Source: Escherichia coli (GTDB lineage Bacteria; Pseudomonadota; Gammaproteobacteria; Enterobacterales; Enterobacteriaceae). From it: a stretch of 35,452 nucleotides of DNA. A program made the position numbers and the translations under genes. The stretch is taken from NCBI RefSeq assembly GCF_003334305.1, contig NZ_QOWS01000033.1; one strand, 5' to 3'. Position 1 is the stretch's first letter. Every line of letters starts with the position of its first letter. This document shows positions 1-11,866 of this stretch, one piece after another. The notes under the pieces are model-generated. The model saw only the letters and a list, made by a program, of their open reading frames with translations, had not been told where the DNA came from and did no database searches.

Positions 1-2
1 TT

Positions 3-497
3 GGTTTAGGAGAAGGCTCTGCATTACCGGTTGGGGTGCCTGTTCCGTGGCCTTCAGCCACTCCGCCAACAGGCTGGCTGAAATGCAATGGTGCGGCTTT
101 TTCTGCTGAAGAATACCCGGAACTGGCAAAGGCTTACCCGACCAATAAATTGCCTGATTTACGTGGTGAGTTTATTCGTGGCTGGGATGATGAACGTGGT
201 GTGGATAGTGGGCGAACTCTGCTTTCATCGCAAGGAGATGCTATTCGAAACATTACTGGCGGTTTTGGTCAGTTGCGCGTAAACAGCGAAATTAATGCAA
301 TTGTCGATGTTCAAAGTGTGAGTGGGGCTTTTTACGGAGGTACCTCAGTCCGGAATAACATCAATGTGTCTATGACATACGCTAATGACCGAAAAATCCG
401 ACAAGATGTTCACTTCTCGGCGGCAAATGTTGTTCCAACAGCAAATGAAAATCGTCCACGTAACATCGCCTTTAATTATATTGTGAGGGCCGCATGA
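3..497 (+). CDS. Tail fibre protein, C-terminal variable part (5'-truncated by window edge; constant part lies upstream)
   Basis: Frame is open from position 3; the translation (GLGEGSALPVGVPVPW...GWLKCNGAAFSAEEYPEL...) resembles phage tail-fibre tips; the stop overlaps the start of the next gene (ATGA at 494-497). Confidence 0.65.
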   Translation, partial: GLGEGSALPVGVPVPWPSATPPTGWLKCNGAAFSAEEYPELAKAYPTNKLPDLRGEFIRGWDDERGVDSGRTLLSSQGDAIRNITGGFGQLRVNSEINAIVDVQSVSGAFYGGTSVRNNINVSMTYANDRKIRQDVHFSAANVVPTANENRPRNIAFNYIVRAA

Positions 498-1102
498 TGA
501 ATAAAGCTGTATTAAATAGCAAACTCATTGCCATAAAAGCGGGAGACATTATCATTTATAATTATGATGGTGAAACGCGGGAATATATTTCTACATCAAC
601 TGAATATCTCGCTGTCGGCGTCGGTATCCCGGCATGTTCTTGTTTAGATGCTCCGGGCTCAAACAAAGCTGGTTATGCAATTTGTCGTTCTGTAGATTTA
701 AACTCATGGGAATATGTGCCAGACCATCGCGGTGAAGTTGTCTATAGTACCGAAACGGGAGATACCAAAGAAATCACAGCTCCGGGTGATTACCCTGAAA
801 ATACAACCATTATCGCCCCATTAACGCCATACGATAAATGGGATGGTGAGAAATGGGTGACCGATACTGAGGCACAGCATAGCGCCGCAGTAGACGCGGC
901 AGAAGCACAGCGTCAGTCACTGATTGATGCTGCAATGGCTTCCATCAGTCTGATTCAGCTGAAATTACAGGCCGGACGGAAGTTGATGCAGGCAGAAACA
1001 ACCCGGCTTAACGCCGTGCTGGATTACATTGACGCGGTGACGGCAACAGATACCAGCACCGCGCCTGATATTATTTGGCCTGTATTCCCTGAGACTGATT
1101 AA
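494..1102 (+). CDS. Tail fibre assembly chaperone (Tfa / P2 G-like)
   Basis: 202-aa ORF immediately after the tail-fibre gene with start/stop overlap; position and size fit a tail fibre assembly protein. Confidence 0.65.
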   Translation: MMNKAVLNSKLIAIKAGDIIIYNYDGETREYISTSTEYLAVGVGIPACSCLDAPGSNKAGYAICRSVDLNSWEYVPDHRGEVVYSTETGDTKEITAPGDYPENTTIIAPLTPYDKWDGEKWVTDTEAQHSAAVDAAEAQRQSLIDAAMASISLIQLKLQAGRKLMQAETTRLNAVLDYIDAVTATDTSTAPDIIWPVFPETD

Positions 1103-1292
1103 CCTCAATTAGTATTGGTTCGCCTTTCTCATTAATTGTTAGCTCCATGCCCTGAGGAATTTCTGTCATAGTAAAAAACCAGTTGTCCTCCGGTAATTCA
1201 ATAGCCCCGGTCACGTCATGAAGACCGGGGATTACTTCAGTCAAAGTAACTGGATTAAACAGGCGCACAATAAACCCTCCAGGAAAAAGCAT
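1071..1292 (-). CDS. Alternative (inverted-orientation) short tail fibre assembly protein
   Basis: Minus-strand ORF convergent with the plus-strand assembly gene, downstream of the minus-strand fibre cassette; start placed at an internal Met; arrangement mirrors Mu G-segment / e14 cassettes. Confidence 0.35.
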   Translation of the reverse strand: MLFPGGFIVRLFNPVTLTEVIPGLHDVTGAIELPEDNWFFTMTEIPQGMELTINEKGEPILIEVNQSQGIQAK

Positions 1293-1596
1293 TTGATGAT
1301 GGTCTGCCGTCGTACATCTGGCAGCGGGCATAAAAGCCGGTATTTGTTACCTGATCATCCACGATCATTGAAACATGAACATTATTAGGTGTGCTCTCGT
1401 AATCCGTTCTTATTCTTTCCGCGATACTGATAAAACGTGAAAGTTTAGGCAGTGCAATTGGGTAAACAACTTTAGCCAGTCCATTATCATTAGATCCACC
1501 GGTTCCAAATACTTCTATTGCACCGTCTGACCAGCGTATCCATGCACCATTGGCATTAGCTCCTCGCTGAATGACATATCTGGCTTCTCCCAAACC
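1255..1596 (-). CDS. Alternative tail-fibre C-terminal cassette, promoterless, expressed only after inversion
   Basis: Minus-strand frame encodes ...VGLGEARYVIQRGANANGAWIRW...; the VGLGE junction matches the GLGE junction at the window start; the Met codons at 1638 lie outside the inverted repeat and are probably incidental. Confidence 0.5.
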   Translation of the reverse strand, partial: GLGEARYVIQRGANANGAWIRWSDGAIEVFGTGGSNDNGLAKVVYPIALPKLSRFISIAERIRTDYESTPNNVHVSMIVDDQVTNTGFYARCQMYDGRPSSNAFSWRVYCAPV

Positions 1597-1610
1597 AACG
1601 TTTAAGAAAA
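1585..1610. repeat. Invertase crossover site (hix/gix-like), right end of invertible segment; partner half-site at 1-14
   Basis: 1585-1598 TTCTCCCAAACCAA is the reverse complement of window positions 1-14 (TTGGTTTAGGAGAA) with one mismatch; 1585-1610 has the form TTCTCCCAAACC-AA-CGTTTAAGAAAA, resembling the 12-2-12 Hin/Gin crossover sites. Confidence 0.55.
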
Positions 1611-1659
1611 TGCAGAGGTAACAGCTAACTGGCATCATCTCCGGTTTTTATTCAGGGGG

Positions 1660-2232
1660 ATGATCATGCTTATTGGCTATGTACGCGTGTCAACAAATGA
1701 CCAGAACACCGATTTGCAACGTAATGCACTGAACTGCGCGGGATGTGAGCAGATTTTTGAGGACAAAATCAGTGGCACTAAGTCCGACAGACCGGGGCTG
1801 AAAAAACTACTCAGGACACTATCGGCAGGAGACACGCTGGTTGTCTGGAAGCTGGACAGGTTGGGGCGCAGTATGCGGCATCTTGTTACGCTGATAGAAG
1901 AGTTGCGCCAGCGTGGTGTGAATTTCAGAAGCCTGACTGACAGTATTGATACCAGTACCCCAATGGGTCGTTTCTTTTTTCATGTCATGGGTGCCCTGGC
2001 TGAAATGGAACGCGAACTGATAGTTGAACGTACCAGGGCAGGGCTGGCTGCAGCTCGTGCCAAAGGCAGAGTAGGTGGACGCCGTCCTAAGTTGACCACC
2101 GAACAGTGGGCACAGATTGGGCGTTTACTCGAGGCCGGAGAATCAAGACAGCGTATTGCACTGATTTTTGATGTAGGCGTTTCTACCATTTATAGAAAAT
2201 TTCCGGCAAATAAGATCAATGAATCCCCCTGA
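1660..2232 (+). CDS. Serine DNA invertase (Pin/Gin/Hin/Cin family)
   Basis: N-terminus IGYVRVSTNDQ with the catalytic Ser context, a resolvase-type catalytic domain and a C-terminal HTH (GVSTIYRKF); lies directly beside the right crossover site. Confidence 0.85.
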   Translation: MIMLIGYVRVSTNDQNTDLQRNALNCAGCEQIFEDKISGTKSDRPGLKKLLRTLSAGDTLVVWKLDRLGRSMRHLVTLIEELRQRGVNFRSLTDSIDTSTPMGRFFFHVMGALAEMERELIVERTRAGLAAARAKGRVGGRRPKLTTEQWAQIGRLLEAGESRQRIALIFDVGVSTIYRKFPANKINESP

Positions 2233-4126: not shown

Positions 4127-4429
4127 ATGAGCGATAAGCAGACTGAAAAGACCATTCAACTGGATACCCCCATCAAGCGCGGTAAAACAGAAATCACCGA
4201 AATTGTGCTGCGTAAACCGCAGTCCGGTGCGCTACGCGGTACACGCCTGCAGGCCATTATGGATATGGATGTAAACGCGATGATGACCGTGATCCCCCGC
4301 ATCTCCAGTCCGGCACTGACTGCACAGGAAATTGCAGAGATGGACCCGGCAGATCTCACTGCCATGTCGGTTGAGGTTGTCACTTTTTTGTTGAAGAAGT
4401 CGGTGCTTGCCGGTTTACCGACAGCCTGA
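4127..4429 (+). CDS. Tail assembly chaperone E
   Basis: 100-aa ORF between tube and tape measure; contains the slippery run TTTTTTG near its 3' end. Confidence 0.75.
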   Translation: MSDKQTEKTIQLDTPIKRGKTEITEIVLRKPQSGALRGTRLQAIMDMDVNAMMTVIPRISSPALTAQEIAEMDPADLTAMSVEVVTFLLKKSVLAGLPTA

Positions 4430-4563
4430 CGGTTGACGATCTGGTGGCAGATATCGCCACCATTTTTCACTGGCCGCCATCCGTTACTGACGTTATGCCG
4501 CTGACCGAAGTGCTGGAATGGCGGTATAAAGCGATTCAGAGAAGCGGGGCCAACGATGAGTGA
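4127..4563 (+). CDS. Tail assembly chaperone E+E' made by a programmed -1 frameshift at TTTTTTG (4384-4390)
   Basis: The -1 frame after the slippery site stays open to a TGA at 4561-4563, encoding ...ADIATIFHWPPSVTDVMPLTEVLEWRYKAIQRSGANDE and overlapping the tape-measure ATG at 4556. Confidence 0.6.
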
Positions 4564-7500
4564 TAACAACCTGCGTCTGCAGGTCATTCTTAATGCGGTT
4601 GACAAGCTCACCCGCCCATTTCGATCTGCGCAGGCCAGTTCAAGAGAACTGGCTGCTGCTGTCAAAAAATCCCGCGATGCAATAAAGCAGCTTGATCAGG
4701 CCGGGAGCAGTCTGGACAGCTTCCGAAAGCTGCAGGCAGAAAATCAGAAATTAGGCGACAGGCTGAACTATGCCCGCCAGCGTGCAAATTTGCTCAGTCA
4801 GGAACTGGGAGCGATGGGGCCGCCTTCGCAACGTCAGGTTGTTGCTCTGGGCCGTCAACGGCTGGCTGTTCAGCGCCTGGAAGAACGCCAGAAAAAGCTG
4901 CAGCAGCAGACGGCGCTTGTGCGTGCTGAACTGTACCGGGCGGGAATTTCTGCGAAAGACGATGCGGGAGCAACTGCCCGTTTAGCCCGTGAAACATCAC
5001 GTTATAACCAGGAACTTTCGAAACAGGAGGCGCGGCTGAAGCGACTGGGGGAAGCTCAGCGCAGGATGAATGCAGCGCGTGCCAGTTATGCCCGTTCGCT
5101 GGAGGTGCGTGATCGTATTGCAGGTGCCGGAGCCACCACCACGGCTGCAGGGCTGGCAATGGGTGCGCCAGTGATGGCGGCAGTAAAAAGCTATACCAGC
5201 ATGGAAGATGCCATGAAAGGTGTGGCAAAGCAGGTCAATGGTCTGCGTGACGATAATGGCAACCGCACTGCACGTTTTTATGAAATGCAGGATGCCATCA
5301 AGGCTGCCAGCGAACAGTTGCCGATGGAAAACGGTGCGGTGGACTTCGCTGCACTGGTTGAAGGTGGTGCGCGCATGAACGTCGCAAACCCTGACGACAG
5401 CTGGGAAGATCAGAAACGTGACCTGCTGGCCTTCGCCAGTACGGCAGCAAAGGCGGCAACAGCCTTTGAGCTGCCAGCGGATGAACTGTCAGAAAGTCTG
5501 GGGAAAATCGCCCAGCTCTACAAAATCCCCACCCGCAATATTGAACAGCTCGGTGATGCGCTGAACTATCTGGATGATAACGCCATGTCGAAAGGGGCAG
5601 ACATCATTGATGTGATGCAACGTCTGGGCGGTGTGGCTGACCGTCTGGATTATCGTAAAGCGGCGGCGCTGGGTTCCACCTTCCTGACACTGGGCGCTGC
5701 GCCGGAGGTTGCAGCCAGTGCAGCAAACGCGATGGTGCGTGAATTGTCCATTGCCACCATGCAAAGCAAGAGTTTCTTTGAAGGGATGAATCTGCTGAAA
5801 CTCAATCCTGAAGTGATTGAAAAGCAGATGACGAAGGATGCGATGGGAACCATCCAGCGCGTGCTGGAGAAGGTAAACGCGCTGCCGCAGGACAAGCGCC
5901 TGTCTGCCATGACTATGTTGTTTGGTAAAGAGTTTGGCGATGACGCGGCGAAACTGGCAAACAACCTGCCGGAACTGCAGCGTCAGTTAAAACTGACAGC
6001 GGGCAATGATGCGCTTGGCTCCATGCAGAAAGAATCCGACATTAACAAGGATTCACTTTCTGCGCAGTGGTTGCTGGTCAAAACCGGAGCGCAGAACACC
6101 TTCAGCAGCCTGGGCGAAACGCTGCGCCAGCCGCTGATGGATATTCTGTACACGGTGAAAAGCGTCACGGGGGCGTTGCGTCGCTGGGTGGAAGCTAACC
6201 CGGAACTGACAGGCACACTGATGAAAGCATCGGCTGTTGTGGCTGCGGTTACCGTCGGCCTCGGCACCTTAGCGGTGGCGCTGGCTGCAGTGCTGGGGCC
6301 GCTGGCAGTGATCCGTCTGGGATTCTCTGTGTTGGGTATCAAAACGTTATCTTCCGTTACGGCAGCAGTAACTCGAACCAGCAGCGCGTTGTCCTGGCTG
6401 GCTGGCGCACCACTGGCACTGCTGCGACGCGGGCTTGCTTCATCGGGCAACGCCGCAGGTTTACTTACTGCGCCGTTGTCGTCTTTGCGCCGCACGGCAT
6501 CACTGACGGGAAATGTCCTGAAAACTGTAGCAGGTGCGCCGGTTGCACTTTTGCGGTCTGGATTATCCGGTTTACGTGCGGTTGCTGTGATGTTTATGAA
6601 TCCACTGGCAGCACTACGCGGCGGGCTGGCTGCCGCAGGCACGGTGCTGCGAGTACTGGCATCTGGTCCACTGGCGATGTTGCGCGTTGCCCTGTATGCC
6701 GTATCTGGTCTGTTAGGTGCTCTGCTCAGTCCGATAGGTCTTGTGGTTACTGCACTGGCGGGTGTGGCACTGGTTGTCTGGAAATACTGGCAACCCATCA
6801 CCGCATTTCTCGGTGGCGTGGTGGAAGGATTCAAAGCGGCGGCAGGTCCCATCAGTGCAGCGTTCGAACCGCTTAAGCCTGTGTTCCAGTGGATTGGTGA
6901 CAAAGTGCAGGCGCTGTGGGGCTGGTTTACTGATCTGCTGACGCCCGTTAAGTCGACTTCTGCCGAACTGCAGAGCGCAGCGGCAATGGGGCGACGATTC
7001 GGGGAGGCACTGGCGGAAGGGCTGAATATGGTCATGCATCCGCTGGACTCCCTGAAATCCGGCGTTTCCTGGTTGCTGGAGAAGCTCGGCATTATCAGTA
7101 AAGAGGCCGCAAAGGCAAAACTGCCGGAAAGCGTGACGCGTCAGCAACCTGCGACGGTGAATGCAGACGGTAAAGTGATGATGCCATCGGGTGGTTTTCC
7201 GTCATGGGGATATGGCTTTGCGGGGATGTATGACAGCGGCGGCTATATCCCGCGCGGGCAGTTTGGCATCGTCGGTGAAAACGGGCCGGAAATTGTTAAC
7301 GGCCCGGCAAATGTGACCAGCCGGAGAAATACAGCTGCACTGGCTGCCGTTGTTGCCGGAATGATGGGCGTTGCTGCCGCGCCTGCAGAGCTTCCACCGT
7401 TGCACCCTTTGGCACTTCCCGCGAAAGGCGGCGAAGCGATGGTGAGTCGTGCAGCCACTGTGCCGCCCGTTCAACGGATTGAGGCACCGATGCAGATCAT

Positions 7501-7633
7501 CATTCAGACGCAGCCAGGACAAAGTGCGCAGGATATTGCGCGGGAGGTGGCCCGCCAGCTTGATGAACGTGAACGCAGGCTGAAGGCAAAAGCCAGGAGT
7601 AACTACAGCGATCAGGGGGGATACGACGCATGA
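4556..7633 (+). CDS. Tail tape measure protein (P2 T-like)
   Basis: 1025-aa ORF with a coiled-coil-like N-terminal region, central hydrophobic Ala/Leu/Gly repeats and the canonical position after E/E'. Confidence 0.85.
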   Translation: MSDNNLRLQVILNAVDKLTRPFRSAQASSRELAAAVKKSRDAIKQLDQAGSSLDSFRKLQAENQKLGDRLNYARQRANLLSQELGAMGPPSQRQVVALGRQRLAVQRLEERQKKLQQQTALVRAELYRAGISAKDDAGATARLARETSRYNQELSKQEARLKRLGEAQRRMNAARASYARSLEVRDRIAGAGATTTAAGLAMGAPVMAAVKSYTSMEDAMKGVAKQVNGLRDDNGNRTARFYEMQDAIKAASEQLPMENGAVDFAALVEGGARMNVANPDDSWEDQKRDLLAFASTAAKAATAFELPADELSESLGKIAQLYKIPTRNIEQLGDALNYLDDNAMSKGADIIDVMQRLGGVADRLDYRKAAALGSTFLTLGAAPEVAASAANAMVRELSIATMQSKSFFEGMNLLKLNPEVIEKQMTKDAMGTIQRVLEKVNALPQDKRLSAMTMLFGKEFGDDAAKLANNLPELQRQLKLTAGNDALGSMQKESDINKDSLSAQWLLVKTGAQNTFSSLGETLRQPLMDILYTVKSVTGALRRWVEANPELTGTLMKASAVVAAVTVGLGTLAVALAAVLGPLAVIRLGFSVLGIKTLSSVTAAVTRTSSALSWLAGAPLALLRRGLASSGNAAGLLTAPLSSLRRTASLTGNVLKTVAGAPVALLRSGLSGLRAVAVMFMNPLAALRGGLAAAGTVLRVLASGPLAMLRVALYAVSGLLGALLSPIGLVVTALAGVALVVWKYWQPITAFLGGVVEGFKAAAGPISAAFEPLKPVFQWIGDKVQALWGWFTDLLTPVKSTSAELQSAAAMGRRFGEALAEGLNMVMHPLDSLKSGVSWLLEKLGIISKEAAKAKLPESVTRQQPATVNADGKVMMPSGGFPSWGYGFAGMYDSGGYIPRGQFGIVGENGPEIVNGPANVTSRRNTAALAAVVAGMMGVAAAPAELPPLHPLALPAKGGEAMVSRAATVPPVQRIEAPMQIIIQTQPGQSAQDIAREVARQLDERERRLKAKARSNYSDQGGYDA

Positions 7634-8115
7634 TGATGGTGCTGGGATTGTACGTGTTTATGCTGCGCACCGTGCCGTATCAGGAGCTGCAGTATCAACG
7701 CAGCTGGCGACATGCGGCAAACAGCCGGGTAAACCGACGTCCGTCCACGCAGTTTCTGGGACCGGACAACGACATGCTGACGCTTTCCGGTGTTCTTATG
7801 CCGGAGATAACAGGTGGCAGGCTGTCGTTGCTGGCACTGGAGCAGATGGCAGAACAGGGGAAAGCATGGCCCCTGATTGAAGGCAGCGGCACGATTTATG
7901 GCATGTATGTGATTGAGGGACTGAATCAGACTAAAACGGAGTTTTTCCGCGACGGTATGCCGCGCCGGATTGAGTTCACCCTGTCGCTCAAACGGGTGGA
8001 TGAATCCCTGTCCGATATGTTCGGTGATCTCAGTGCGCAACTGAATAATCTGCAGGAAACGGCAACGTCTGCCTTAAGCGATATCAGTAAAACGGTGGGA
8101 GGGCTGCTGTCGTGA
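7630..8115 (+). CDS. Tail protein U-like
   Basis: 161-aa ORF whose start overlaps the tape-measure stop; position matches P2 gene U. Confidence 0.75.
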   Translation: MMMVLGLYVFMLRTVPYQELQYQRSWRHAANSRVNRRPSTQFLGPDNDMLTLSGVLMPEITGGRLSLLALEQMAEQGKAWPLIEGSGTIYGMYVIEGLNQTKTEFFRDGMPRRIEFTLSLKRVDESLSDMFGDLSAQLNNLQETATSALSDISKTVGGLLS

Positions 8116-9302: not shown

Positions 9303-9521
9303 ATGATGATTTGCCCACTGTGTGGAAGTGCCGCCCATACTCGCAGCAGTTTTCAGGTATCTTCATTGACCAAAGAGCGTTACAACCAGTGCCAGAACAT
9401 TAACTGCAGCCATACTTTTGTTACCCATGAAACTTTTGTTCGTTCGATTGCAACGCCAAAAGAGTCAAATCCGGTTCAGCCGCATCCTCATAAATTTAAA
9501 CAGGTGGGTTTGCCGATTTAA
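9303..9521 (+). CDS. ogr: Ogr/Delta-type zinc-finger late transcription activator
   Basis: CPLCGSAAHTRSS...YNQCQNINCSHTF is a C4 zinc-finger pattern like P2 Ogr; start placed at the Met preceding CPLC, with a GGGAGA Shine-Dalgarno upstream. Confidence 0.75.
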   Translation: MMICPLCGSAAHTRSSFQVSSLTKERYNQCQNINCSHTFVTHETFVRSIATPKESNPVQPHPHKFKQVGLPI

Positions 9522-9585
9522 ATGGCGACATAACTACATGATTTAAAACTATACTTTTCTATAAGTTGAGGTTAAATTAACAATG

Positions 9586-9762
9586 CCTGACGTTAGCGGG
9601 GATTTATCCCCACTCCGTAGATATGTAGTTTGTCGCTTTGCGACTGCGGACCGATTACCTGATTGCCATGTAATCGGACGCCGACTTGTTAAGCTTTCTG
9701 GGCTAACTGGTTGTTATTTTTTATTTAGTTAGGGCCATGCGCTTGCGCTAAGAGACGTCAGG
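9586..9762 (+). ncRNA. Candidate structured non-coding RNA upstream of the reverse transcriptase (retron msr/msd-like or DRT-type ncRNA)
   Basis: Long-range inverted repeat CCTGACGTTAGCG (9586-9598) with CGCTA-AGAG-ACGTCAGG (9746-9762) enclosing hairpins at 9598-9611, 9632-9644 and 9651-9677; no convincing ORF inside. Confidence 0.4.
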
Positions 9763-9782
9763 TATCTATGGAGGAACAAGTT

Positions 9783-9956
9783 ATGGATACAAACGAACTT
9801 GGCTTAGTTAAGGCGCGTGTTGAACTGATCACCGCTATGCTCAAATGCGCAACCGCGTTTGTTGGCTTAGTTGGTGCGGTTTACGCCGTTCTTAACATGG
9901 CCTTCAACTACAACAATTTAACTCATGACAATAGAAGTTCAAAGGTGGGAAGATAA
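9783..9956 (+). CDS. Small hypothetical protein with one hydrophobic helix (possible small effector, or frameshifted RT N-terminus)
   Basis: Only open frame across 9768-9956; GGAGGA Shine-Dalgarno about 7 nt before the ATG at 9783; hydrophobic stretch AFVGLVGAVYAVLNMAF; overlaps the RT start by about 30 nt in another frame. Confidence 0.3.
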   Translation: MDTNELGLVKARVELITAMLKCATAFVGLVGAVYAVLNMAFNYNNLTHDNRSSKVGR

Positions 9957-10698
9957 ATTTGAGATTAAGCCCGGGGTTTGGGTTTATGTCCCAAGCGTTG
10001 AGGCACGTAAAGTCGGAGGGAAGATACTTCAGGCTGTCAGAAACAAGTGGATTCCGCCACTCTATTTTTACCATCTAAGAACTGGTGGGCATCTTAAAGC
10101 TGCCAGATTACACTTAAAAAGTGATTTTTTTGCCGTTGTTGATATTAAACAATTTTTTCAGTCAACGAGCCGTAGTCGTATCACCCGTGATCTAAAGAGC
10201 TACTTCACCTATTCTCAAGCGCGGGAAATCTCAACATTTTCAACTGTAAGAAACTTGTCCCATAGTCCACATAAGCATGTCCTCCCTTTTGGTTTTGTTC
10301 AATCTCCAATACTTGCAACCCTCTGCTTAGATAAAAGTTATTTTGGTAGCTTACTACGCCGATTGAACAAACATCATGATCTCAAGCTAAGTGTGTTTAT
10401 GGATGATGTGATCATCTCGTCAAACGATTTGGCCCAATTACAAGCGGCTTACGACGAAGCACTAGTGGCAATGCGTAAATCTGGTTATCAAGCCAACATG
10501 AGTAAAACTCAGGCACCATCGTCAAAGATTAGCGTGTTTAATTTAACTTTGAGTAAGGGAGTTATGAAAGTCACATCTCAGAAAATGAGTGACTTCCTGA
10601 TTGATTTCTATTCAAGCAATTATGAGCCGCACAGAATAGGGGTCAAAAACTACGTCGAAGCTGTTAATCCAGGGCAAGCGAAACTCTTTAAGTTGTAA
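9925..10698 (+). CDS. Compact reverse transcriptase (retron/Abi/DRT-like RT domain)
   Basis: RT motifs readable in the translation: fingers FEIKPGVWVYVPS, motif A VVDIKQFFQS, motif B LPFGFVQSPILATLCL, catalytic YxDD box FMDD; AT-rich with rare codons (AGA, ATA, CTA). Confidence 0.75.
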   Translation: MTIEVQRWEDKFEIKPGVWVYVPSVEARKVGGKILQAVRNKWIPPLYFYHLRTGGHLKAARLHLKSDFFAVVDIKQFFQSTSRSRITRDLKSYFTYSQAREISTFSTVRNLSHSPHKHVLPFGFVQSPILATLCLDKSYFGSLLRRLNKHHDLKLSVFMDDVIISSNDLAQLQAAYDEALVAMRKSGYQANMSKTQAPSSKISVFNLTLSKGVMKVTSQKMSDFLIDFYSSNYEPHRIGVKNYVEAVNPGQAKLFKL

Positions 10699-10806
10699 TT
10701 GCGATCGCATGTAGTAGCAACTGGGCTTGACTGAATGTCTGCCGCCATTTTGCCGCCACTACTAAAGAAAAAAGGGCTACGCTTTCACGTAACCCCTTGA
10801 TTTATT

Positions 10807-11169
10807 TGGTGGAGCTGGCGGGAGTTGAACCCGCGTCCGAAATTCCTACATCCTCGGTACTACATGCTTAGTCAGTCTTTACATTCGCTTGCCAGCTGCG
10901 GACGGACACGCCACTAACAAACTAGCCTGATTAAGTTTTAACGCTTCAACCCCAGGCAGGGCTTCCACGCGATCTCTTTTGGGTTTGACCTCTCTTGATC
11001 CCCGTCCTAAGAGCGGAGGCTAGGGAGAGAGGGCTCTAAGCAGGTTATTAAGCTGCTAAAGCGTAGTTTTCGTCGTTTGCGACTATTTTTTGCGGCTTTT
11101 TACGAGGCCAACCGCCCCTCGGCATGCACCTTGGGTTTCGCAAATCCCGTCGAATCCAGAATCAGCCCC
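10807..11169 (-). ncRNA. ssrA: tmRNA (SsrA)
   Basis: Reverse complement matches E. coli tmRNA from GGGGCTGATTCTGG (5' end at 11169) to GCTCCACCA (3' end at 10807), including the tag-coding region. Confidence 0.95.
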
Positions 11170-11383
11170 AATGTGTAAAGGTAAGTATACCAGATTTATG
11201 AGCGCCATGACCAGCCTCAATGGCGTTATCGTTAAAGATTTAGCACCCATGTAGCCTGATTTTTATTCGATTAAGCAATGGGATGGCAACATTTGTGTCG
11301 GATGTGATAGCCAATAAGATGTTCATTCGCGCCGCCGGAGAGGGAGGCGCGGTGAGGAACTGGTCAATAATTGGAGTGCAGGT

Positions 11384-11866
11384 TTAACGGTGGGCGTTTT
11401 TCATGATACGTGCTTTATCCACCTGCCATTCGCGTTCTTTGATATCTGAACGTTTATCGTGCTGTTTTTTACCTTTGGCGACGCCGATTTTCACTTTGCA
11501 CCAGGCATTTTTCCAGTACAGGGAGAGCGCCACTACGGTATAGCCTTCTCGATTGACGCGACCGTACAATGAGTCCAGTTCGCGTTGGTTGAGAAGTAAC
11601 TTGCGGGTACGGGTAGGATCGCACACCACATGCGTGGAGGCCACGGCCATTGGCGTGATGTTAGCGCCAAACAGAAATGCCTCTCCGTCACGCAGAAGGA
11701 CGTAGCTGTCGCTGATATTGGCTTTTCCTGCGCGCAGGGATTTAACCTCCCAGCCTTGCAGGGCAAGTCCCGCTTCGAACTCTTCTTCGATAAAGTATTC
11801 GTGACGGGCGCGCTTGTTAAGCGCGATGGTCGCTGAACCAGGTTTATGTGCTTTTTTCTTCGTCAT
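11384..11866 (-). CDS. smpB: SsrA-binding protein SmpB
   Basis: 160-aa translation is the recognisable SmpB sequence; lies directly upstream of ssrA on the same strand. Confidence 0.95.

Follow-up and report, generated by a model that had tools for sequence, protein, structure and literature searches.

A tandem 21/22-residue repeat of occasionally changing copy number in the tape measure protein of a P2-like Escherichia coli prophage

The tape measure protein (TMP) of a P2-like prophage in Escherichia coli was found to contain a true tandem protein repeat, whole units of which are occasionally gained or lost between related prophages. The array comprises five consecutive units at aa 619–725 (nt 6410–6730), with lengths of 21/22/21/22/21 aa and the consensus P-L-A-x-L-R-x-G-L-x-x-x-G. 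Sequence comparison places it between two conserved and strongly hydrophobic helices, where it makes up a linker whose length varies. The window analyzed is a stretch of 35,452 nt (contig NZ_QOWS01000033.1), to which all nucleotide positions refer. The best explanation, to which we give slightly better than even chances, is an old, amplified, proline-started helical unit of 21/22 residues with a spacer or amphipathic role, whose copies are gained and lost through slippage or unequal exchange.

The array lies in a gene at 4556–7633 (+) encoding a gpT-type (P2) protein of 1025 aa. Its initial identification as a tape measure protein gene was borne out by domain and family matches and by P2 tail-gene synteny. 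TIGR01760 matched aa 200–567 (E = 1.3e-92; 310.6 bits vs a cut-off of 28.8), PF10145 matched aa 246–457 (E = 2e-18), and phrog_28 matched with E = 4.5e-198. A RefSeq record that is 100% identical to positions 6150–6950 of the window carries the same 3,078-nt gene, annotated as "phage tail tape measure protein". The gene order at the locus is sheath, tube, PF10109 chaperone, GpE ORF, TMP, gpU, gpD, and ogr, and a P2-type slippery site, TTTTTTG, is located at 4385–4391, upstream of the TMP gene. The TMP gene occupies the expected position, directly 3′ of the frameshifted gpE/E+E′ chaperone pair and 5′ of gpU/gpD/ogr. The prophage is P2-like (Peduoviridae, Wadgaonvirus-type).

All five repeat strings quoted in the preliminary description were recovered from the translation of 4556–7633 (+), and the span given there, 6400–6720, was roughly correct, its 3′ end falling 10 nt short of the end of the array at 6730. 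On the + strand, unit 1 (PLALLRRGLASSGNAAGLLTA, 21 aa, from aa 619) occupies 6410–6472, unit 2 (PLSSLRRTASLTGNVLKTVAGA, 22 aa, from aa 640) 6473–6538, and unit 3 (PVALLRSGLSGLRAVAVMFMN, 21 aa, from aa 662) 6539–6601. Unit 4 (PLAALRGGLAAAGTVLRVLASG, 22 aa, from aa 683), the one most often gained or lost by relatives, occupies 6602–6667 (+) and is followed at 6668–6730 (+) by the strongly hydrophobic unit 5 (PLAMLRVALYAVSGLLGALLS, 21 aa, aa 705–725), which is conserved even where relatives have no units 1–4. Upstream of the array, a 37-aa segment that we call unit 0 (aa 582–618; 6299–6409, +) begins with a sixth copy of the motif, PLAVIRLGFSVLG, the remainder being spacer. Downstream, the second conserved hydrophobic helix, which can also be described as a degenerate unit 6 (PIGLVVTALAGVALVVWKYWQ, 21 aa, from aa 726; 6731–6793, +), is followed by a proline-started 18-aa unit (PITAFLGGVVEGFKAAAG, from aa 747; 6794–6847, +) that is conserved across P2-like TMPs.

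The statistical analysis of the protein supported the claim of a tandem repeat. The first 13 residues of units 1–5 had a mean pairwise BLOSUM62 score of 24.7, compared with −1.4 ± 2.0 (maximum 7.2) for composition-preserving shuffles of aa 560–800 in which the best register was taken for every shuffle (z ~13). In a leave-one-out profile, the five units scored 21.5–32, and the unit 0 head at aa 582 scored 19.2, above the 95% level of the null; the scores at aa 829 (15.2) and aa 726 (12.6) were not significant individually. The autocorrelation of the protein peaked at lags 43 and 64, above every shuffle, and at lag 86, above the 95% level. Lag 43 was the strongest and suggested a two-unit (43-aa) super-repeat; this was rejected, since pairwise identities did not favor i/i+2 pairs, and the peak follows from the constant sum 21 + 22.

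At the DNA level, the repeat was much fainter. Tandem Repeats Finder, run over 4500–7700 with a minimum score of 30, detected no repeat, because the units are too diverged in DNA (25–59% identity between units). A DNA repeat search found only short unit heads in common, CCACTGGC...CTGCG, and the DNA autocorrelation exceeded a codon-shuffle null at lags 129 and 192 only. The expectation of a periodicity that is not merely compositional was therefore upheld for the protein, and the weak DNA periodicity is its shadow. Among positions with the same amino acid in two units, 33 codons were identical vs 31.5 expected from codon usage, and we reject a recent origin of the units of this allele by duplication or gene conversion. 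The repeat is old, and the DNA similarity between its units is only what their common amino acids impose. The absence of a Tandem Repeats Finder match and the low inter-unit DNA identity could also be read as meaning that there is no true repeat and that the pattern is a by-product of hydrophobic, low-complexity composition. We regard this reading as already refuted and give it next to no credence, since same-composition, register-optimized shuffles never approached the observed score, Pro, Leu, Leu-Arg, and Gly are conserved at specific positions of the units, and natural indels follow unit boundaries.

The curated TMP core domain does not include the array, which is bounded on both sides by segments whose Kyte–Doolittle values exceed 2.3. 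The 19-residue mean exceeded 1.6 at aa 553–594 (maximum 2.38) and aa 702–746 (maximum 2.42), and units 1–4 remained below this threshold (maximum ~1.2–1.57), with hydrophobic moments of 0.24–0.40 and two to three Arg/Lys each. The first segment contains conserved helix 1 (GTLMKASAVVAAVTVGLGTLAVALAAVLG, aa 553–581; 6212–6298, +), which is also found in the gpT of the P2 relative L-413C and in SEN4, KL3, and ST340phi10.2. The motif that follows helix 1 is likewise conserved in distant P2-like TMPs (PMALVRLSF, PLAIVRFSM, PMAVLRVSA). Helix 2 is 95% identical among homologues, and its WKYWxPI motif aligns to the TMP chain PDB 8kea_G and to L-413C gpT. Between the equivalent helices there are 36 aa in L-413C gpT, ~60 aa in SEN4, and ~200 aa in KL3. 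The array itself is Arg-rich and rich in Leu, Ala, Gly, Ser, and small-residue motifs; Asp/Glu are absent from aa 553–756 as a whole, where there are ~15 Arg/Lys.

Sequence and profile searches of the PDB yielded no solved structure spanning this part of any TMP. The matches, all weak, were to the TMP chains 9j1k_J and 8kea_G and fell within the conserved helix-2/WKYW region, and in the monocin TMP structure residues 573–622 alone are resolved. An AlphaFold2 model of aa 520–860, built from a 13-sequence alignment, was all-helical but unusable (pLDDT 37, pTM 0.20).

Comparison with related prophages confirmed that the array is a site of variation, as had been proposed, and that the variants are rare: 4-, 6-, 2-, and 0-unit alleles and half-unit alleles all map there. 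Indels of ≥5 aa among 120 close homologues cluster in aa 582–733, and proteins 85–98% identical to the query differ by +22, −22, −64, and +11 aa. In L001 (1047 aa), unit 4 is duplicated (66 nt, 65/66 nt identical), giving six units, and in L003 and L010 (1003 aa) it is lost, leaving four. The −64 aa allele has lost three units, P0054 carries an 11-aa duplication inside unit 4 (+11 aa), and a half-unit (11-aa) change is also present in P0038. Unit 2 is absent from P0117 and P0119, and P0012 and P0014 lack all 37 aa of unit 0. The first codons (CCA/CCT) are interchanged between the 6-unit and 4-unit alleles, the pattern that reciprocal products of an exchange within CTGGCG would show. A 4-unit allele occurs as an intact CDS in a finished genome, where the tube and chaperone proteins are identical to those of the 5-unit prophage (identical accessions), and alleles with 0–2 units are present as open reading frames; some rare variants may belong to defective prophages. 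In 1053-aa relatives, an unrelated acidic, hydrophilic cassette of nearly equal length stands in place of the array, a replacement that, by its sequence, keeps length and not chemistry.

The five-copy form is nevertheless overwhelmingly dominant, whole units being gained or lost only occasionally. Junction 41-mers searched in 5,426 complete E. coli genomes gave 583 normal junctions, 1 deletion, and 0 duplications, counts that are lower bounds because megablast requires near-exact matches. In a search of phage records, every full-length match listed covers the same 3,078 nt. Nearly all of the largest protein clusters have a length of 1025 aa, which is maintained across Escherichia, Salmonella, Klebsiella, and Cronobacter. 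Each unit is conserved individually as an orthologue down to ~50% identity (P0179, P0173). A search with the array alone against 1.84 billion cluster representatives gave 46 matches, mostly fragments of the same family, and no distant family with a larger array. That five units predominate suggests either selection acting on the length of the linker or of the TMP, or that gains and losses are infrequent.

A repeat of this sort is ordinary for tape measure proteins. Known TMP repeats are tandem units of 11 aa (also 11-11-18 or a 44-aa block) marked by Trp or Phe (Belcaid et al. 2011, PMC3271669; TP901-1, Mahony et al. 2016, PMC5099701). The array resembles them in having in-frame tandem units inside a TMP, orthologous units more similar than paralogous ones, and copy numbers that change by duplication and loss between related prophages; its unit is also ~2 × 11 aa, with 11-aa half-unit changes in two relatives. 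However, its period is 21/22 aa and is marked by Pro-Leu...Leu-Arg...Gly rather than by aromatics, it is situated in the hydrophobic inter-helix linker of a P2-type myophage TMP rather than in a siphophage soluble ruler, and it has just five copies, a number that is strongly conserved. The [FW]-x10-[FW] periodicity of the Belcaid 2011 class was not found in the array, and lag 11 was absent from the autocorrelation peaks.

For TP901-1 Tm1–6, the transmembrane segment and amphipathic bundle of T4 gp29, lambda gpH, and T5 pb2, membrane interaction during genome delivery has been proposed or shown. The region described here is likewise a predicted cluster of hydrophobic helices in the C-terminal half flanked by amphipathic helices. 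None of those regions has been described as a variable-copy sequence repeat, in contrast to the array, and in this protein a transmembrane-like level of hydrophobicity is confined to the two flanking segments. L-413C gpT (815 aa), from a Yersinia phage closely related to P2, shares the gene position (FI-FII-E/E+E′-T-U-D-ogr), the TP901-type core, and the succession of helix 1, linker, P-helix 2 (..WKYW/RKYWE), PxxAFxGGVVEGxKAA, and PLK-PxFxWxGxKxQxxWxWF, with low overall identity (~35% over ~30% of the length). It differs in its single 36-aa linker, compared with a 37-aa unit plus five 21/22-aa units here.

In the origin that we favor, the unit appears to have arisen from the motif conserved downstream of hydrophobic helix 1 in P2-type TMPs. 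At 6–9-nt microhomologies between equivalent unit positions, such as CC(A/T)CTGGCG at the unit heads, slippage or unequal exchange would then produce the gains and losses of whole units (22 or 64 aa) and half units (11 aa). The array would function as a spacer that adds to tail length and/or as an amphipathic helix module beside membrane-inserting segments. In the assembled tail, five Arg-bearing, acid-free amphipathic helices would lie within an elongated TMP bundle inside the tube and add to the ruler length by at most ~3 nm per unit; after ejection, the units may adjoin or cover the pair of putatively membrane-inserting helices that would contribute to the DNA conduit. A link between unit number and tail length is expected by analogy with published work in other phages. 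In TP901-1, deletion of TMP repeats or hydrophobic regions shortens tails proportionally (PMC5099701), and in P2-like Burkholderia phages, TMPs of 842, 920, and 1075 aa accompany tails of 140, 150, and 160 nm (PMC3091744). The Burkholderia data give a slope of ~0.09 nm per aa, less than a straight helix would give, and linker residues may therefore add little length; one unit (~3 nm as a straight helix) is also shorter than one tube ring (~4 nm), so a change of one unit may leave the tail unchanged. Electron microscopy of the relative MLG42 was rejected as a tail-length datum, its 234-nm tail being accompanied by a 128-nm head, which makes the scale doubtful.

Three other functional readings were weighed against this origin. 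The array might be primarily membrane-active, with units of ~21 residues acting as spanning or interfacial helices that build an inner-membrane DNA channel after ejection and with any effect on tail length incidental. The unit length fits a bilayer span, the Leu-, Ala-, Gly-, and Ser-rich units with small-residue motifs lack acidic residues, the flanks are strongly hydrophobic, and channel formation by the T4 and lambda TMPs reportedly involves predicted transmembrane segments with amphipathic helices on their flanks. We nonetheless consider this reading unlikely: units 1–4 fall under the transmembrane threshold and carry several charges each, a 36-aa linker suffices for L-413C gpT, 0–2-unit alleles occur as open reading frames, and the second hydrophobic region is dispensable in TP901-1 (PMC5099701). 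Common relatives also carry the acidic, hydrophilic cassette instead, which argues against a sequence-specific membrane role of units 1–4. Alternatively, the array might be a neutral, harmless expandable linker, with five units dominating through common descent and infrequent mutation, not through selection. In favor of this, Peduoviridae TMPs differ greatly in both the length and the sequence of the linker, no other part of the C-terminal half is as weakly conserved as the array (83% identity vs 94–95% in its neighbors), and the lineage is narrow, as the 46 cluster representatives indicate. Such neutrality appears quite improbable, given that individual units persist as orthologues to ~50% identity, that 1025 aa is kept across four genera although unit-changing events demonstrably occur, and that the alternative cassette is nearly equal in length.

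By analogy with other TMPs, the units might also be periodic docking sites for the chaperones gpE/gpE+E′, which would cover the TMP's hydrophobic part while the tail is assembled, in copies set by unit number. The chaperone genes with their slippery site lie immediately upstream, and published work ties hydrophobic or periodic TMP segments to chaperone binding (PMC5099701, PMC3271669). The published periodic markers are, however, aromatic residues every 11 aa, and the array has no Trp and one Phe; moreover, identical-accession chaperones serve 5-unit and 4-unit TMPs, and very similar ones presumably serve the cassette-replaced TMPs. Docking is thus, in our judgment, very unlikely. A bolder variant of the spacer idea, which we hold to be highly doubtful, is a vernier in which one tube ring would be matched by a single unit, or by a 43-aa pair folded into a helical hairpin, via contacts of Arg with the acidic lumen; after ejection, the units would stack in the wall of a trans-envelope conduit, and the 4-/6-unit alleles and the cassette swap would be adaptive to host envelopes. 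If this were true, the number of units would adjust the lengths of tail and conduit together.

Tape measure proteins are the standard textbook example of a molecular ruler. According to recent work, they also help to form the conduit through which DNA crosses the cell envelope, and their central hydrophobic parts remain structurally unseen. The relatives described above provide a natural allelic series of 0, 2, 4, 5, and 6 units, together with a hydrophilic replacement of near-equal length, in otherwise closely related P2-like tails. With this series, any contribution of the hydrophobic linker to tail length, and any requirement for it in genome delivery, could be probed.

A spurious antisense ORF of 369 aa (5983–7092, −) overlies the hydrophobic region, within a stop-free run at 5985–7143 (1,158 nt, covering aa 477–862), and antisense ORFs matched no family in PHROGs. 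The repeat block had been named as the source of such ORFs, and it does contribute ~28% of the run. Stops in the antisense frame require sense Tyr, His, or Gln codons, which number 3.4 per 100 aa here vs 8.9 elsewhere, and the long ORF results from their scarcity across the whole hydrophobic region, a matter of composition over a much longer stretch than the repeats.

The tape measure protein (TMP) gene occupies 4556–7633 on the plus strand of the window and encodes a protein of 1025 aa, which matched TIGR01760 (tape_meas_TP901; 310.6 bits, aa 200–567), PF10145, and phrog_28. The five repeat strings quoted in the preliminary description were all present, exactly, in this translation. The units open with prolines at aa 619, 640, 662, 683, and 705 (nt 6410, 6473, 6539, 6602, and 6668), their lengths alternate as 21/22/21/22/21 aa, and unit 5 ends at nt 6730; additional proline-started segments begin at aa 582, 726, 747, and 765. 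The first 13 residues of the five units had a mean pairwise BLOSUM62 score of 24.7, whereas composition-preserving shuffles of aa 560–800, each taken in its best register, scored −1.4 ± 2.0 with a maximum of 7.2. The array (units 1–5, aa 619–725) is therefore a true repeat, and a compositional artefact was rejected. The protein autocorrelation peaked at lags of 43, 64, and 86, and a leave-one-out profile recovered all five units (scores of 21.5–32) as well as PLAVIRLGFSVLG, which heads the segment at aa 582 (score of 19.2).

At the DNA level, a repeat search returned only short unit heads in common, for example, CCACTGGC...CTGCG. The nucleotide periodicity that a true repeat might display was detected in part: two lags alone, 129 and 192 nt, had autocorrelation above the codon-shuffle null, and Tandem Repeats Finder reported no repeat. 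At positions with the same amino acid in two units, 33 identical codons were observed, compared with 31.5 predicted by codon usage. A recent DNA tandem repeat was rejected. A protein signal far beyond chance combined with a weak DNA signal marks the array as an old, protein-level repeat.

The array lies outside every curated domain model. The TMPs of Peduoviridae share a scaffold in which hydrophobic helix 1, ending in ...AVLG-P, is followed by a linker and then by hydrophobic helix 2, a P-started segment of 21 aa that ends in WKYWQ/RKYWE; 3′ of helix 2 are an 18-aa unit, PxxAFxGGVVEGxKAA, and then PLK-PxFxWxGxKxQxxWxWF. Among P2-type TMPs, the linker measures 36 aa in gpT of the Yersinia phage L-413C (a P2 relative, standing here for P2 gpT), about 60 aa in SEN4, and about 200 aa in KL3, whereas that of the TMP studied here comprises the 37-aa unit 0 (aa 582–618) plus units 1–4(5). 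The motif directly after helix 1 is kept in distant relatives (PMALVRLSF, PLAIVRFSM, and PMAVLRVSA) and looks like the seed from which the unit may have been amplified.

Hydrophobic, transmembrane-like regions are already known in TMPs. Here, the Kyte–Doolittle 19-residue mean peaked at 2.38 (aa 553–594) and 2.42 (aa 702–746), marking two strongly hydrophobic segments. Units 1–4, located between them, are moderately hydrophobic (means of 0.26–1.11), with hydrophobic moments of 0.24–0.40 and two or three Arg/Lys per unit. About 15 Arg/Lys and zero Asp/Glu were counted in the 204 residues of aa 553–756 (window 6212–6823), an extreme charge asymmetry that spans both hydrophobic helices and the array. 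No solved structure covering the linker/array region was found, and the AlphaFold2 monomer of aa 520–860 had a pLDDT of 37.

Variation was surveyed in the 120 best database homologues, with the region laid out unit by unit. Their length classes included 1025, 1023, 1021, 1003, 1047, 1053, and 1139 aa, and internal indels of at least 5 aa were concentrated in aa 582–733. Whole units were both gained and lost, bearing out the suggestion that repeat number varies between related prophages. Unit 4 is duplicated exactly in P0002 (1047 aa) and lost in P0010 (1003 aa), unit 2 is lost in P0117 (999 aa), and a hybrid of units 1/4 shortens P0040 and P0120 (961 aa) by 64 aa, or three units. Other homologues lack 75 aa (P0038, 950 aa), the 37-aa unit 0 (P0012, 988 aa), or almost the entire array (P0056, 924 aa), and P0054 (1036 aa) carries an 11-aa internal duplication. 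At the DNA level, the duplicated unit 4 copies of the six-unit allele L001 are identical at 65 of 66 nt, and the second opens with CCA, the codon that starts unit 5. In the four-unit allele L003, the hybrid unit opens with CCT, the codon that starts unit 4 in that allele's lineage. These swapped codons are the pattern expected if the alleles were reciprocal products of unequal exchange or of slippage inside the CTGGCG that the units have in common. E. coli MFDS1016424, whose genome is finished, has a four-unit allele as an intact 3,012-nt CDS; its prophage lies at ssrA, a different site from that of the ybjL-side five-unit prophage, and the two prophages have identical tube and chaperone protein accessions.

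A different exchange was found in the 1053-aa type (P0059–P0063, P0085–P0094, P0186, P0189, and P0198), which is common (54–87 contigs). In these homologues, of which P0060 is typical, an unrelated hydrophilic, acidic cassette (...GGGDDDGGGILDAFRDGALDKIKE...) replaces units 0–4 at window ~6310–6670 (TMP aa ~586–704) and is almost as long as the replaced part, and the protein outside it is about 85 to 90% identical. Judged from these sequences, the 1053-aa type is a mosaic cassette exchange inside TMP.

Variants in unit number are rare. Every full-length match listed in the phage-record search had 3,078 nt, as in the query, and of 60 E. coli genome matches sampled evenly, 57 were colinear over 801 nt. 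In 5,426 complete genomes, 41-mers spanning the unit 4–unit 5 junction, whose counts are lower bounds, identified the normal form in 583 genomes, the deletion in 1, and the duplication in 0. The large 90% clusters (9,661 and 1,625 members) consist almost entirely of 1025-aa proteins and cover Escherichia, Salmonella, Klebsiella, and Cronobacter. The more distant relatives P0173 and P0179, whose arrays are about 50% identical, keep the units one for one, and a search with the array alone gave only 46 matches among 1.84 billion cluster representatives. The array is thus lineage specific and old, with a unit number that is normally fixed at five.

The best-supported reading, offered only as a proposal, is that the array could act as a helical spacer that makes the TMP bundle inside the tube lumen longer and could flank or shield two putative membrane-inserting helices. 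This reading is supported by the cassette swap, which keeps length but not chemistry. It is also supported by TP901-1, in which deletion of TMP repeats or hydrophobic regions shortened the tail (PMC5099701), and by P2-like Burkholderia phages, in which TMPs of 842, 920, and 1075 aa accompany tails of 140, 150, and 160 nm (PMC3091744). The Burkholderia slope is about 0.09 nm per aa, less than the 0.15 nm that each residue of a straight helix would add, so long linkers may fold back on themselves and contribute only in part. Electron microscopy of the related phage MLG42 is of doubtful scale.

Recent work has assigned channel formation to T4 and lambda TMPs with a predicted transmembrane segment beside amphipathic helices, which makes a membrane-related role plausible. 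A sequence-specific membrane role for units 1–4 is opposed by their sub-threshold hydrophobicity, the short linker of L-413C gpT, and the existence of a common acidic replacement cassette. Chaperone-docking sites, a neutral linker, and a pure channel module stand as rival readings to the spacer and shielding proposal.

Known TMP tandem repeats of variable copy number are 11-aa Trp/Phe-marked units and 44-aa blocks (PMC3271669; TP901-1, PMC5099701). The array differs from these in its 21/22-aa period, its Pro, Leu-Arg, and Gly markers without Trp, its position in the linker between the helices of a P2-type myophage TMP, and its near-fixed copy number; no description of it was found in a limited literature search. 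It is of low general interest, with some practical value as an allelic series, since the alleles form a natural series for asking whether the hydrophobic TMP linker counts towards tail length.

The repeat block had also been held responsible for long antisense ORFs. The repeats contribute to these but are not their cause: the 369-aa antisense ORF (5983–7092, minus strand), which had no PHROG match, is part of a stop-free run of 1,158 nt (5985–7143) spanning aa 477–862. Stops in this frame require sense Tyr (TAY) or His/Gln (CAN) codons, and these residues number 3.4 per 100 aa in aa 477–862 versus 8.9 elsewhere.

A second, larger site of length variation in the TMP gene is the C-terminal module at window 7118–7375 (aa ~855–940; KLPE...(F/Y)AGMYDxGGYIPRGQFGIVGENGPEIVNGPANVTSRRNTAALAAVVAGMMG), which takes part in a 114-aa tandem duplication in the 1139-aa relatives (P0001, P0015–P0032, and others). 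Its core (aa 885–926) is 60 to 70% identical to many unrelated siphophage TMPs. The 1107-aa forms replace the normal ending with a unique, unrelated extension after ...SDQG, suggestive of a frameshift or of read-through beyond the usual stop. P0033, P0183, and P0200 are frameshifted within or near the array (within it in P0033 and P0183) and out-of-frame across units 3–5, reflecting either a repeat region prone to frameshift errors or decay, or sequencing errors in the assemblies.

In the E. coli 13E0767 chromosome record, which matched window 6150–6950 at 100%, the same 3,078-nt TMP gene belongs to a P2-like prophage whose genes run sheath, tube, tail assembly chaperone, GpE ORF, TMP, gpU-like, gpD, and ogr, followed by host ybjL; other contigs have the same tail-gene order around TMP. 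The nearest named phage was Escherichia phage 500465-1 (Peduoviridae, Wadgaonvirus; 99%). The P2 slippery heptamer TTTTTTG (4385–4391) is located close to the end of the PF10109 chaperone gene (100 aa; ORF 4127–4429), followed by a GpE-family ORF (4444–4563) that overlaps the TMP start, an arrangement as expected for a predicted E/E+E′ programmed −1 frameshift. The right end of the prophage is at window ~9521–9757, where ogr (about 9303–9521) directly precedes host ybjL (about 9757–11442, minus strand); beyond this, up to 35452, the window consists of ordinary E. coli chromosome (grxA, nfsA, rimK, potFGHI, artJMQIP...). Window 1–2232, immediately upstream of the sheath gene, has tail-fibre assembly ORFs in opposite orientations beside a 190-aa recombinase-family gene (1660–2232) and resembles an invertible tail-fibre segment of the kind that switches host range.
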